This document shows positions 1 to 3,866 of a stretch of DNA of 64,000 bases, in pieces. The position numbers and the translations under genes are program-made. The notes beneath the pieces were generated by a model that was not told the DNA's origin, searched no databases, and saw only the letters and a program-made list of their open reading frames with translations. Within the stretch, counting starts at the first letter, position 1; each line of letters begins with the position of its first letter. This stretch comes from Pseudomonadota bacterium. GTDB taxonomy: Bacteria; Desulfobacterota; Binatia; Binatales; Binataceae. The DNA lies in contig JAJPKA010000018.1 in NCBI GenBank assembly GCA_021323945.1, forward strand, positions 372,453 to 436,452, in the 5' to 3' direction.

Positions 1-256
1 CTTTGAATCGGCCGACCGGTTGGGCTAGGCTCGCAGCTACGGTGATAAGCTAATCGGTTGAAAAGCGGCGAGGACCCCCTTAACAGGTGTCCTTAACCTT
101 GGCGATTATGCCACAAGCTTCAGTAACAAACGTTTCTAGCTTGTTTGCGACAGGCTCCAACCTTATGAGCACGCAGTCCCAAACTCTCGCAGTGGCTGGC
201 TCGAGTGGACCACGGTTCATGGCTTACCGTTCGACCTGCAATTAGGAGATGCACCG

Positions 257-1303
257 ATGGCGACAACGCAATCGGAGGTTGTTGAGGACGATCCGATTGA
301 ATTGCTGTTTCAACGCGGCGTAACTGACGGCTTGCCGGTGGTTCCACCCACTCGCGAGCGCGTCGACCGTATGCTCGCAGCTGCCCCTGGCCGACGACGC
401 GACGAGTTGATCGGAGTACTCGGCCCGCAGATGGGACGGGCGACGGTTGAAAAAGTCGCCATCAACGCGGTGATGGCGGGGTGCAAACCTGAATACTTCC
501 CAGTCGTTCTGGCAGGAGTAGAAGCCTTGTGTGACGCTGCGTTCTGCGCGCATGGCCTTAGCATCACGCTCATGTCAGGCGCTCCACTGGCGATCATCAA
601 TGGGCCGGTGCGGAATCGCATCGGCCTTAACTCGGGTCACAACGCGTTAGGACACGGATTTCGGGCCAATGCAACTATCGGACGGGCGTTGCGCCTGGTC
701 ACGATGAACATTGGCGGTGCGCGGCCCCATGGCGTGACCAAGGCAACGCTGGGACATCCAGGTCAATACAGTTTCCTGGTGGCCGAGTACGAAGAAGCGT
801 CGCCCTGGGAGCCGTTTCATGTCCAACGCGGCTTCCGCAAGGCGGACTCGGTTATCACTCTCTTTGGTGGCACCGGCTTTTTTCAAATCGTTGATTTTGC
901 CAGCAATACGGCGGAGAAGCTCCTGTCAACCATCGGGGGGACCATGGGATGCATCAACAGTTATCGCGAATATCCCCTGATGTCGGATACCGTTTTGGTG
1001 CTGAGCCCGGAGCATGCGGCGACGATTGCTCGCGACGGATGGTCGAAGCGCGACGTCTCTAACTATCTCTACGAAACGGTCGTCCGCCAGCAACCGCCGC
1101 AGGGGATCCTTGGGCCGCCACGTGGGCGGGTTGCGCGATGGACCACCGCCGAGGGAGCGACGCGCAAGTTTCGCTCTCCCGAGTCTATAATCGTACTGGT
1201 TGCCGGGGGCACCGCGGGGCGCCTTTCCGCAGTGATTCCCGGATGGGTATCGGAGGAGCTGGCTGGTAGTTCACCCGTCAGCAAACTGATACGGCTCGAA
1301 TAA
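257..1303 (+). CDS. Uncharacterised conserved protein (TDGLPVVPPT family), usual partner of UGSC selenoproteins
   Basis: 348-aa ORF with RBS AGGAG. Motifs TDGLPVVPPT, VEKVAINAVMAGC.P.YFPVV and RANATIGRALRL are typical of the family found next to UGSC proteins. Confidence 0.75.
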   Translation: MATTQSEVVEDDPIELLFQRGVTDGLPVVPPTRERVDRMLAAAPGRRRDELIGVLGPQMGRATVEKVAINAVMAGCKPEYFPVVLAGVEALCDAAFCAHGLSITLMSGAPLAIINGPVRNRIGLNSGHNALGHGFRANATIGRALRLVTMNIGGARPHGVTKATLGHPGQYSFLVAEYEEASPWEPFHVQRGFRKADSVITLFGGTGFFQIVDFASNTAEKLLSTIGGTMGCINSYREYPLMSDTVLVLSPEHAATIARDGWSKRDVSNYLYETVVRQQPPQGILGPPRGRVARWTTAEGATRKFRSPESIIVLVAGGTAGRLSAVIPGWVSEELAGSSPVSKLIRLE

Positions 1304-1378
1304 GGGTGCCCACTGAAGGAGGAAGCGTTGCGCGGGTGGAAAACGATAGGTACCGAGAGGAAGAAAGGAGTTTTAGTC

Positions 1379-1927
1379 ATGACAGATGATCTTCTGGATC
1401 CTGTTGGCTTCGAAAGTGCTGGGCCGCCCAAGCCGATGGCCAAGCGCCTCGATAGTCTAAGTGGCAAAACAATCGGAATACTCGATATTGGCTTTCCCAA
1501 TGGCAATCTCTTCCTGGATCGGGTGGAAGAGGTACTCCGAAGCAAGTATGGAGTGGCGGAGTTCGTAAGGCGCGCCAAGCCGAGCCCTGCGCGACCAGCG
1601 GATGACGAGGTAAGGAGGGAGTTGATCGAGGCCTGTGATGCGATTGTAGAAGGGACCAGCAGTTGAGGGTCTTGCATGTCGTGCAGTTCGCACGACACCG
1701 CCTATTTCGAGGAACAGGGAATTCCCACCGCGAATATAGCGACTACAGAGTTCCGGGAAGCAGGGCGTATCCAGTACACCAATCTCGGATACCCCAATTA
1801 TGACATCGTCTTCATTCCTCACCCAATTTTTCCACTGACCAAAGAGGAAACCTTCGCCAAAGCCGACGCAGTGATTGACGAAATTGTGAAACGGCTGACT
1901 GAGGATCAGACATCTCGGCGAGTTTGA
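1379..1927 (+). CDS. UGSC-motif selenoprotein (182 aa, Sec96 encoded by TGA 1664-1666)
   Basis: ORFs 1328-1666 and 1676-1927 are in the same frame. Read-through gives ...EGTSS-U-GSCMSCSSHD.... RBS AAGGAG precedes ATG 1379, and a SECIS-like hairpin follows the UGA. Confidence 0.88.
1677..1697 (+). promoter_or_regulatory. Bacterial SECIS-like hairpin
   Basis: Perfect 8-bp stem TGTCGTGC/GCACGACA with loop AGTTC (G at position 2). There are 18 nt between the UGA and the loop, which fits the bacterial SECIS consensus. Confidence 0.8.
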
Positions 1928-1940
1928 AGCGACGGCAGCC

Positions 1941-1985
1941 GCGACCTCCTGCCCGCATTTTAAATCGTGCGGGGCGGGGGGTCGC
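1941..1985. terminator. Long GC-rich hairpin between convergent genes
   Basis: GCGACCTCCTGCCCGCA pairs with TGCGGGGCGGGGGGTCGC (G-U pairs, one bulge). Confidence 0.5.
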
Positions 1986-2038
1986 ATGGGCTTAACGGGT
2001 AACTCGCCACTTTCCGATTTGGCGTCGGTCGCGAGCCG

Positions 2039-3019
2039 CTAGGCTGCTTCGCCGAGCATCCGGCGCAAGCGCTGAATTCGGCGCGAGAGGGGCGGGTGAG
2101 TCGAAAATAAATTGTCCAGAAACCCTTCATCGTCGTCCCGGGCGCCTGTGAGGGGATTGACAATAAAAAGATGAGCAATGCCGCGAGACGCGTGGGCGAG
2201 CGGTGACTGACTTTGCGCGATCTGTTCGAGTGCGCGCAGCAGGGCCCGCGGATTGCGCGTAAACTCGACGGCTGAAGCGTCAGCGAGGTATTCGCGCTGG
2301 CGCGACACAGCCATGGCGATCAAACCGGAGAAAAGCGGTGCCAGCATTGCCAGAATGAAGACCGCGGTTGTGAGCAACATTCCACTTTCCCCTTGACTTT
2401 CCTCACCGTCGTCGCGTCCGCCCAAGCCGCCGAAGAAGGACCAGCGCATCAAAAAGTCGGTTAGCATTGCCACGCCGCCAACCAACACCGCGATCATCAT
2501 CATTGTACGAATATCATAATCGCGGATATGCGCCATCTCGTGGCCGATGACGCCTTGTAGCTCTTCTCGATCCATCTGATCCACCAGCCCCTGCGTGACA
2601 CAGATAACGGAATGCCACGGATCGCGCCCAGTGGCAAAAGCGTTAGGTGCCGGGTCATCAATGATGTAAAGCCGGGGGACGGGCATGCGCGACGCCAAGG
2701 CCATCTCCCGCACAACGTCTGTAACCACTTGGTGTTGTGGTGAGTCCGGCAGTAGGGGACGTGCATGGGCTGATGCGAGGACAAGAGTCGCACCACCAAA
2801 GTAGGAGATCAGTGATTGGAAGGAGCCAACTACCAGCGCGGAAACCGTGAGTAGAGGAAAACCAACCAGTTGCCCGTCTTTTAGCCGTACAGTGCCCAAG
2901 ACGAAATCGAGACCGAAGCCGAGGGCAGAGAAGAGCGCGAGAAACACCAGGACAAGCAGGACCGTGGCGCGGCGGTTGCGACGCTCCAATTCACGAAAAT
3001 CGGCGCGCGTAGCTGCCAT
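2039..3019 (-). CDS. htpX: M48 family zinc metalloprotease HtpX-like
   Basis: PNAFATG, HEMAH zinc motif, SRQREYLADA and STHPP; lies downstream of lemA. Confidence 0.9.
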   Translation of the reverse strand: MAATRADFRELERRNRRATVLLVLVFLALFSALGFGLDFVLGTVRLKDGQLVGFPLLTVSALVVGSFQSLISYFGGATLVLASAHARPLLPDSPQHQVVTDVVREMALASRMPVPRLYIIDDPAPNAFATGRDPWHSVICVTQGLVDQMDREELQGVIGHEMAHIRDYDIRTMMMIAVLVGGVAMLTDFLMRWSFFGGLGGRDDGEESQGESGMLLTTAVFILAMLAPLFSGLIAMAVSRQREYLADASAVEFTRNPRALLRALEQIAQSQSPLAHASRGIAHLFIVNPLTGARDDDEGFLDNLFSTHPPLSRRIQRLRRMLGEAA

Positions 3020-3037: not shown

Positions 3038-3610
3038 TTAAGAGGCGCGCTGAGTTCCCAACGAAAGGTCGACCTTCGGTACGGCCTGGTCTTCTGCCGA
3101 GGTCTGGAAATATTCAGCCGGGCGAAAGCCGAATTGTGTGGCAATGATGCTGGCTGGGAAGGTCTCAATGCGATTGTTCAGATCCAACACCGCATCGTTG
3201 TAGGCCTGACGAGCGAATGCGATCTAATTCTCAGTGGTGGTCAGCTCTTCCTGCAATCGTAAAACGTTGCCATCCGCCTTTAACTGCGGGTAATTTTCCA
3301 TTAACGCCAGCAGCCGACCGAGACCAGCGGTGAGCTCGTTTTCCGCTCGAACTCGTGTTTGCTGACTGGGAGCTGCAATCGCCCGATTGCGGGCTTCGAT
3401 TACCTGACCAAGTGTCTCTCGCTCAAATTGCATGTAGCCTTTGACTGCTTCTACCAGGTTTGGAATGAGGTCGTGGCGACGTTTGAGCTGGACGTCGATT
3501 TGACGCCAGGCATTCTCGACAGCGTTGCGCATCCTGACGAGCGAATTATAGGTAAAGATCAAATATAGCGCGACAATAACGATAATTCCGATGACTATCC
3601 AGGTGCTCAT
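3038..3610 (-). pseudogene. lemA: LemA family protein interrupted by an in-frame TAG at 3224-3226
   Basis: N-terminal TM helix and IDVQLKRRHDLIPNLVE. After ...TTTEN* the same frame continues IAFARQAYNDAVLDLNNRIETFPASIIA...PKVDL to TAA at 3038, giving about 190 codons. Confidence 0.85.
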
Positions 3611-3866
3611 TGAGGCTGTATTCTCCCCCTCACTGACTCCGCTATCCATCTATTAAACAGTCTTCTTATAAATAGTCGTTCGTTGTGCGGGCGCTGGTTT
3701 GAAACCACCAACTCTCTTTCTGAGACGAGCGCCGCTGAAGAATGATAACAGAAAGTTTTTCTGCAAAAGCGTTTGTCGGGAGGGATCTCGGAGGCATGGA
3801 CGGCTCGGCGGCCGTCCATGCCTGGCCCTTAAAAAAAGCGTGATTTCGACTCAAAAGGAATGGCTT

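Follow-up and report, generated by a model that had tools for sequence, protein, structure and literature searches.

Do two short open reading frames (ORFs) that share one frame and are interrupted only by a UGA constitute a single selenoprotein gene, and what might its product do together with that of the gene upstream? The question is raised by positions 257 to 1927 of a 64,000-nucleotide stretch of a Binataceae genome (NCBI GenBank assembly GCA_021323945.1, contig JAJPKA010000018.1, positions 372,453 to 436,452 of the forward strand), the whole of which is referred to here as the window. A preliminary description, made from the letters of the window, had read through the UGA and proposed a selenocysteine (Sec)-dependent module of two genes. 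ORFs 1328-1666 and 1676-1927 on the forward strand do lie in a common frame, and the TGA at 1664-1666 is its sole interruption. From comparison with relatives, 1379-1927 is best explained as a single gene for a Sec-containing protein of the UGSC family, a known but uncharacterised family, and the gene upstream appears to encode its constant, obligate partner. The features on which the argument turns are as follows.

Positions 244 to 248, forward strand: Shine-Dalgarno-like AGGAG, 8 nt before the partner ATG (direct reading).

Positions 257 to 1303, forward strand: partner gene, 348 aa, of an unnamed family (ORF, conservation, AlphaFold2 (AF2) model).

Positions 1366 to 1370, forward strand: Shine-Dalgarno AGGAG, 8 nt before ATG 1379 (direct reading).

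Positions 1379 to 1927, forward strand: predicted selenoprotein gene of the UGSC family (182 aa), ending in a TGA stop at 1925-1927 (read-through translation, NF041046, PF24696, AF2 model).

Positions 1664 to 1666, forward strand: UGA, predicted to be read as selenocysteine U96, forming a UxxC motif with C99 (1673-1675); C102 (1682-1684) is a clade-specific third Cys (aligned TGA/Cys, contigs).

Positions 1677 to 1697, forward strand: putative SECIS-type (selenocysteine insertion sequence) hairpin, 8-bp stem, loop AGUUC at 1685-1689 (fold, conservation, covariation, suppressed synonymous variation).

The partner ORF runs from ATG 257 to TAA 1301-1303, and a gap of 75 nt separates its stop from ATG 1379. 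We take ATG 1379 and not the mechanical TTG at 1328 as the start of the selenoprotein gene because AGGAG at 1366-1370 lies 8 nt upstream and the resulting N-terminus, MADD(I/M)LDP, is present in 10/10 close relatives. Translation of 1379-1927 with TGA as U yields 182 aa containing ...VEGTSS-U-GSCMSCSSHD..., with U96, C99, and C102, in agreement with the SS-U-GSCMSC that the preliminary description had derived. Against NCBIfam NF041046 ('UGSC family (seleno)protein') the read-through product scores 137 bits (cut-off 125), over profile positions 2-147 of 147, and against Pfam PF24696 (UGSC) it scores 158.3 bits (cut-off 25), over positions 2-171 of 172. U96-G-S-C99 falls at the conserved position of the family; among 35 sequences, the second Cys never varies and the column of the Sec/Cys is at least 90% conserved. 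Assignment to the UGSC-motif family was therefore borne out by both curated cut-offs. The family is hidden, as had been suggested, in the sense that many database entries are fragments cut at the TGA, but not in the sense of escaping NF041046 and PF24696, both of which detect the read-through protein. The expectation that standard pipelines split the gene was correct: 11 of 12 database matches cover just 40-60% of the query, and gene calling with table 11 leaves many truncated UGSC fragments in public protein sets. One near full-length database homologue, 55% identical to the UGSC protein of the window (P0272), shows W in place of Sec, probably because the TGA was rendered as Trp at its source.

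Conservation of the TGA was examined in 40 extracted loci, 10 from close Binataceae/Binatia metagenome-assembled genomes and 30 from 201 sampled phylum genomes; all of these genomes are kin within one phylum, and the counts overstate the number of independent observations. The TGA codon is retained in 10/10 Binataceae/Binatia loci at protein identities of 61-87%. UGSC is found in 24/201 phylum genomes, with 75 matches of which 63 contain one TGA, 11 contain none, and one contains two. In the 40 loci, which hold 42 UGSC copies, the aligned Sec codon is TGA in 41 and Cys in the remaining copy (L047, genome G143). Cys also occupies the UGA position in three uninterrupted fused homologues (P0176, P0255, and P0194), and a fourth, P0147, reads C-G-A-S. 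The Cys that was anticipated opposite the UGA in homologues is thus present in several of them. The host genome (3.74 Mb, 22 contigs, 95.5% complete) also has the complete Sec machinery, for which a search had been suggested as a check: profile searches detected selA (572 bits), selB (360 bits), and selD (379 bits), and tRNA-Sec scored 74 bits, with anticodon TCA as called by ARAGORN. The host selD (L010, G000:C1:158949-159872) itself contains one in-frame TGA, and selenophosphate synthetase of this organism is probably a selenoprotein too.

Across the phylum sample, selA is present in 23/23 genomes with a TGA-form UGSC, and G143 (100% complete), whose sole UGSC copy is the Cys form, has no selA. 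Because selA is so common (184/201 genomes), this agreement is supportive rather than strong. A sequencing error at the TGA had been named as a way in which the proposal might fail; 1664-1666 shows 0 differences in the contigs that cover it from four runs, one from each of four studies of soil and mine metagenomes, and some of these runs may be the source of the window DNA. Taken together, the comparisons indicate that UGA 1664-1666 is most probably read as Sec.

In the bacterial SECIS consensus, a stem-loop whose apical loop contains G/U follows the UGA at a distance of about 11 nt. In the window, 1677-1684 can pair with 1690-1697 to form 8 perfect bp closed by the loop AGUUC (1685-1689). Counted from the UGA, the stem begins at 10 nt and the loop at 18 nt, so that the 8-bp hairpin with loop AGTTC of the preliminary description is real but its placement 18 nt downstream applies to the loop and not to the stem. 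Considered alone, the hairpin is at chance level: the 76-nt stretch gives z = -0.53, and 59/200 shuffles fold equally well. Comparison with relatives gives a different picture. The hairpin is kept in 10/10 Binataceae/Binatia loci, and codons 101-106 (TCG TGC AGT TCG CAC GAC) are frozen in 11 close sequences in which the flanking codons vary freely. One locus (L029) carries a compensatory G-C to A-U change, the sole synonymous variant of the hairpin, together with ATG>ATA. Over columns with invariant residues in these 11 sequences, synonymous variation is seen in 1/6 hairpin codon columns versus 82/92 elsewhere (Fisher p = 2.4e-4). Another 39 UGSC genes with a TGA, whose proteins are as little as ~25% identical, form a stem of 6-9 bp in nearly the same register from differing sequences (GUCGUGC/GCACGAC, AUCAUGG/CCAUGAU, CUCGAGC/GCUCGAG, and GUCGGCC/GGUCGAC), and the loop retains G-U.

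Covariation was evaluated in a gap-free alignment of 40 UGSC sequences. Pairing cells amounted to 78.1% versus 64.7% in shuffles, double-sided changes to 43 cells versus 16.3, and the covariation score to 0.349 versus 0.160; 0/500 shuffles reached any of these three values, and controls slid along the alignment scored at most 0.248, although the test is inflated by the relatedness of the sequences and by the structure having been taken from one of them. A search of window 1200-2100 against Rfam 15 returned nothing relevant at E<=10 and no family at threshold. By the comparison with relatives, the hairpin is more than a chance fold and is probably of SECIS type.

If the protein contains Sec, its role is most readily approached through the gene that accompanies it. 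A partner homologue adjoins UGSC, either adjacent or fused, in 10/10 close loci and 30/30 phylum loci. Among the latter, 13 have the order of the window (partner followed by UGSC, as separate genes), 14 are fusion genes of ~570-620 aa in which UGSC comes first and the open frame is interrupted only by the Sec TGA, and the remaining 3 have UGSC first and are out of frame or partial. Profiles of the partner and of UGSC match exactly the same 24/201 phylum genomes, and the host genome contains a single copy of each, side by side. The adjacency or fusion in 40/40 loci and the identical genome pattern uphold the earlier claim of a two-gene module and point to the upstream product as an obligate partner of UGSC. 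No third gene common to more than four loci was detected when 222 crude ORFs from 23 loci were clustered with an ORF caller that is rough in GC-rich DNA, many of these ORFs having no Pfam match. Longer fused forms of UGSC were missed by a word-index search, a misleading blank, as six-frame searches of the genomes and searches of representatives found many fusions. An apparent TGA inside a partner homologue in G110 proved to be simply the stop codon of that gene and was discarded as a sign of Sec in the partner.

UGSC-partner fusions are expanded in three genomes (G171, G034, and G124, with 16, 14, and 9 UGSC matches). These fusions (L096, L099, and L092) form in part tandem arrays beside genes for GntR/FCD regulators, Opp/Dpp-type ABC and TRAP/MFS transporters, rhodanese, and MauE/DoxX proteins. 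L096 combines three fusions with a GntR/FCD regulator, an Opp/Dpp-type ABC transporter, and a TRAP permease; at L083 the neighbours are an MFS transporter, a 2-hydroxyacid dehydrogenase, and RraA-like and PrpD-like proteins. These neighbourhoods, from a few relatives, weakly suggest that the substrate is a small organic acid or a peptide.

The partner itself has no match in Pfam, NCBIfam, or PDB sequences. Its homologues number at least 8000 clusters at 90% identity, all unnamed or 'hypothetical', and 5214 representative clusters at 50% identity (E<=1e-3). The preliminary description had called it a 348-aa 'TDGLP-family' protein; the ORF and the D-G-L-P motif are real, but there is no such named family, and neither Pfam nor NCBIfam has a model for it. 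Conservation singles out D24-G-L-P27, P30-P-T32, G75-C76, R136, N138, G142-R143, E177, and W184, with D24-G-L-P27 invariant or nearly so in 64 homologues, and together they could suit an anionic small substrate. At column 174 the copy in the window and its clade have Leu (L174), and at least 90% of homologues have Cys. Loss of this Cys showed no clean covariation with gain of the third Cys in UGSC, as L036, L038-L041, and L054 have both. G75-C76 was considered as a pyruvoyl-forming self-cleavage site and rejected as unsupported, Cys76 being Ala in four loci. The AF2 model of the partner has a predicted local distance difference test score (pLDDT) of 91.7 and a predicted template modeling score (pTM) of 0.92.

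Domains joined to the partner elsewhere were surveyed by comparing the best 150 of the 5214 partner representatives with Pfam (E<=0.001), with the following result.

UGSC: 39/150, 34 above the Pfam cut-off; present whole at the N-terminus, as an N-terminal remnant starting after the TGA, or as a piece at the C-terminus that stops at profile position 92 (the TGA).

AhpC-TSA/Redoxin-like: 7/150, 6 above the cut-off; N-terminal, with a CxxC in P0135.

Ferredoxin:thioredoxin reductase (FTR) catalytic chain: 2/150, both above the cut-off; N-terminal in P0129, and in P0204 arranged as UGSC remnant-partner-FTR_B, which is also counted under UGSC.

No fused Pfam domain: 103/150, including tandem partner-partner proteins of ~710-740 aa.

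In six proteins of ~710-740 aa (P0125, P0132, P0145, P0155, P0202, and P0207) the partner domain is matched over two or three stretches, and a redox domain is not recognised in any of them. In the Atlas, the nearest structures to the partner (TM 0.91) are clusters fused to TlpA/AhpC-TSA and clusters fused to UGSC. The fusion scan and these neighbours suggest that the partner domain is the constant element and that the dithiol or selenol-thiol donor joined to it varies.

The fold predicted for UGSC differs from the one its motif calls to mind. Its AF2 model (pLDDT 92.9) consists of five successive strand-helix units, in which Sec96 comes after strand 3, where helix 3 begins. Foldseek returned 53 matches to the model at E<=1e-3, and the structural matches are flavodoxin-like proteins, azoreductases, receiver domains, and binding-protein domains, with VIA Z up to 11.1. 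No thioredoxin fold is among the structural matches listed, no thioredoxin-type Pfam match was obtained, and searches of PDB sequences with UGSC alone or as a profile gave matches only at chance level. UGSC is modelled as a flavodoxin/CheY-like alpha/beta/alpha sandwich. The earlier term 'thioredoxin-like' fits just the UxxC motif and not the modelled fold.

A more informative relationship is to glycine reductase selenoprotein B (GrdB). Nine GrdB genes of the same phylum were read through their TGA, giving ...LTST-U-GTCTRCGAT...E..GIP, and served as the comparison set. The hhalign comparison aligned UGSC 83-174 with GrdB 336-423 at a probability of 96.5% (E 9.5e-10), with Sec on Sec and with the U-G-(S/T)-C and PHP motifs in register. 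The GrdB model TIGR01917 scored 15.9 bits on UGSC against a cut-off of 602.2, over residues 76-123 only, and PF07355 did not match at E<=0.01. The Sec-bearing half of UGSC is thus homologous to the C-terminal, catalytic end of GrdB. The partner aligned with GrdB at an hhalign probability of 0.5% and with a GrdE alignment at 0.4%, and it has no Pfam Gly_reductase match (PF09338, for the GrdE/PrdA-type proprotein); by these comparisons the system is not a glycine or proline reductase. Small proteins that match only positions ~185-347 (mostly 200-345) of the Pfam GRDB model (G000:C8:617102-617488 and 49 further listed matches) were seen in the same searches. They are mostly stop-free open frames of ~150-280 aa that are common in the phylum. 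PF07355 occurs in 61/201 phylum genomes, mostly through matches to these small proteins, which look like another stand-alone relative of the GrdB segment.

We consider it fairly probable that the pair constitutes a two-component selenol/thiol oxidoreductase in which the partner binds and reduces a substrate and UGSC is its dedicated redox module. In such a system the hairpin 10 nt downstream would assist SelB and tRNA-Sec in decoding UGA 1664-1666, so that Sec96 is placed at a helix start in a flavodoxin-like domain, three residues before Cys99. The partner would most likely be the substrate-binding, catalytic subunit. Sec96/Cys99 would deliver two electrons to the region of the partner's conserved Cys76 or to a substrate bound there, close to an internal selenium-sulfur (Se-S) bond, and be re-reduced by a thioredoxin-type or ferredoxin-linked system. 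This reading is favored because peroxiredoxin (Prx)-like and FTR-like donors are interchangeable with UGSC, which also argues for the partner as the constant, catalytic part; the physical complex, the direction of electron flow, and the catalytic role of the partner are what we infer.

Several observations weigh against it. The partner has no universal Cys, since Cys76 is replaced by Ala in 4/30 phylum loci (L048, L049, L050, and L059) and column 174 is Leu in the window. No conserved third gene accompanies the pair to point to a reductant. Of the partner representatives, 103/150 have no fused Pfam domain, and the kinship of the compared genomes, described above, reduces the force of the counts. 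Nor does the fold of the partner point clearly in any direction: Foldseek ranks first 7xky_A, a class I fumarate hydratase alpha subunit (E 4.8e-4, TMq 0.29), followed by L-serine dehydratase, CyuA, and Rid/YjgF-like pieces (best VIA Z 5.8 over 91 residues), and such weak matches neither name a fold nor prove a new one. Reviews, PMC13188914 among them, point to no experiment on any member of either family. Finally, GrdB, the nearest homologue of UGSC, is itself a catalytic selenoprotein and not a mere electron carrier.

That last point favors a different division of labor, that of a miniature 'protein B', which we regard as unlikely overall and as the most serious competitor. UGSC would here be catalytic, as are GrdB and PrdB, and the partner would only bind and activate a small substrate; Sec96 would attack a substrate carbon in a reductive cleavage of a C-N or other C-X bond, after which the Se-S bond with Cys99 would be reduced. 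The Sec-on-Sec hhalign match to GrdB and the weak TIGR01917 match at the same place speak for it, as does gene order, GrdB being encoded directly after the substrate-binding GrdE just as UGSC follows the partner in the window. Some paralogue arrays, moreover, lie amid GntR/FCD, TRAP, MFS, Opp/Dpp-type ABC, 2-hydroxyacid dehydrogenase, and PrpD-like genes, but these themes recur in few loci only. Further difficulties are that the partner has no similarity to GrdE/PrdA (0.4%) or to GrdB (0.5%) and no Gly_reductase match, that there is no sign of a pyruvoyl group, and that UGSC has no counterpart of the ~250-aa N-terminal part of GrdB. Replacement of UGSC on the partner by Prx-like and FTR-like domains is also a better fit to a general reductant than to a substrate-attacking selenol, and for this reason we retain the two-component redox system as the preferred reading.

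Two other accounts fare far worse. The UGA could be an ordinary stop, leaving a truncated 95-aa gene followed by an unrelated 83-aa ORF, or a pseudogene; gene callers using table 11 return exactly these fragments (11/12 database matches cover 40-60%), and the hairpin alone is not significant against shuffles. Both halves, however, match one profile from end to end (PF24696, 2-171/172), the TGA is kept in 41/42 copies at identities down to ~25%, Cys forms exist, the hairpin covaries, and the Sec machinery is complete, so that we judge this account highly improbable. Equally hard to sustain is the view that UGSC is a free-standing thioredoxin-fold antioxidant selenoprotein to which an unrelated gene is merely adjacent. 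The UxxC motif would be in keeping with it, but the order of structural elements is flavodoxin-like, the top listed matches are azoreductases and flavodoxin-like, receiver, and binding proteins with no thioredoxin-type Pfam match, and the partner is adjacent or fused in 40/40 loci with a phyletic pattern identical to that of UGSC.

Outside the pair, the genes on one side in the window encode an M48 (HtpX-like) peptidase, a LemA protein, an Hsp20 protein, and a zinc alcohol dehydrogenase, and none is conserved with the pair; on the other side, beyond the start of the window, lie AIR-synthase-related and CNNM/CorC-type genes, neither of which is conserved with it. The LemA-family gene (window 3038-3649, reverse strand) is split by an in-frame TAG at 3224-3226 (...TTTEN*IAFARQAYND...), with both halves in one frame, whereas relative L020 has an intact LemA of 190 aa; the TAG may be a nonsense mutation, the mark of a pseudogene, or an assembly error. 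A scan for promoters and terminators around the operon gave nothing beyond chance. One further feature lies just after the selenoprotein gene.

Positions 1943 to 1983, forward strand: GC-rich inverted repeat after the UGSC stop, with no T-run, which may end the transcript (seen just as stems in chance-level Rfam alignments; not listed by the terminator scan).

The UGSC family has been in print since 2007-2008 (Zhang & Gladyshev 2007, 2008; PMC2398784). In Table 2 of PMC2398784, ocean samples hold 255 Sec and 21 Cys forms of UGSC, which ranks third by count and so was one of the commonest predicted families of selenoproteins in ocean metagenomes. The 2008 paper (PMC2398784) also reports UGSC fused to a conserved domain, 'Unknown_1', which is likely to be the partner family of the window. 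A 2026 review (PMC13188914) still lists UGSC as uncharacterised (see also PMC1976440 and PMC9312934). Among cultured organisms, Hyphomonas neptunium carries UGSC according to PMC1976440. Full-text searches on UGSC led to selenoproteome surveys and reviews whose titles and matching passages mention no functional work, no link to GrdB, and no described partner.

As a new member of UGSC, the locus itself adds little. Its value lies in the testable handles that it provides: an obligate partner, homology to the catalytic end of GrdB, and natural fusions in which UGSC, peroxiredoxin-like, and FTR-like donors are interchangeable on one enzyme domain. A bolder interpretation, which we offer tentatively and think doubtful as a whole, is that the pair is the soil member of a large undescribed class of Sec-dependent reductases, composed of a minimal GrdB-like selenol module and a catalytic subunit with no Pfam family or clear structural relative, which would reductively cleave small carboxylates or peptides and would have an FTR-like ferredoxin link in some lineages. 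If so, the occurrence of at least 10 paralogues in some genomes would reflect an enzyme family that has diversified by substrate, much like the reductases of glycine, betaine, sarcosine, and proline.

Compared with the UGSC family as described, the protein agrees in its full-length match above both cut-offs, in U-G-S-C at the family position, and in a distribution of mostly Sec with few Cys forms; it differs in nothing essential, its particular traits being a soil/mine Binataceae-like genome and a clade with a third Cys (UGSCMSC). The SECIS of Escherichia coli fdhF has a minimal upper stem-loop ~11 nt after the UGA and a loop with G and U. The hairpin of the window shares with it a stem-loop 10-11 nt after the UGA and an apical G followed by U (AGUUC; GUG, GUA, or AGUAU in relatives), whereas its sequence is unrelated and it has no bulged U. 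With the 'protein B' systems GrdB/GrdE and PrdB/PrdA the pair has in common a homologous Sec segment and a selenoprotein gene directly after that of the larger partner subunit. In contrast, UGSC is 182 aa long versus ~430, missing the N-terminal ~250 aa of GrdB, no relationship links the partner to GrdE/PrdA, there is no GrdA, GrdC, or GrdD context, and nothing indicates a pyruvoyl group. Dedicated disulfide-relay modules can pair with or fuse to reductases: thioredoxin/TlpA-like domains do so, and ferredoxin:thioredoxin reductase acts on thioredoxin. Although UGSC is not modelled as a thioredoxin fold and its acceptor enzyme stands outside described families, the partner domain resembles these systems in having interchangeable CxxC/UxxC donors, namely UGSC, AhpC-TSA/Redoxin-like domains, and the FTR catalytic chain.

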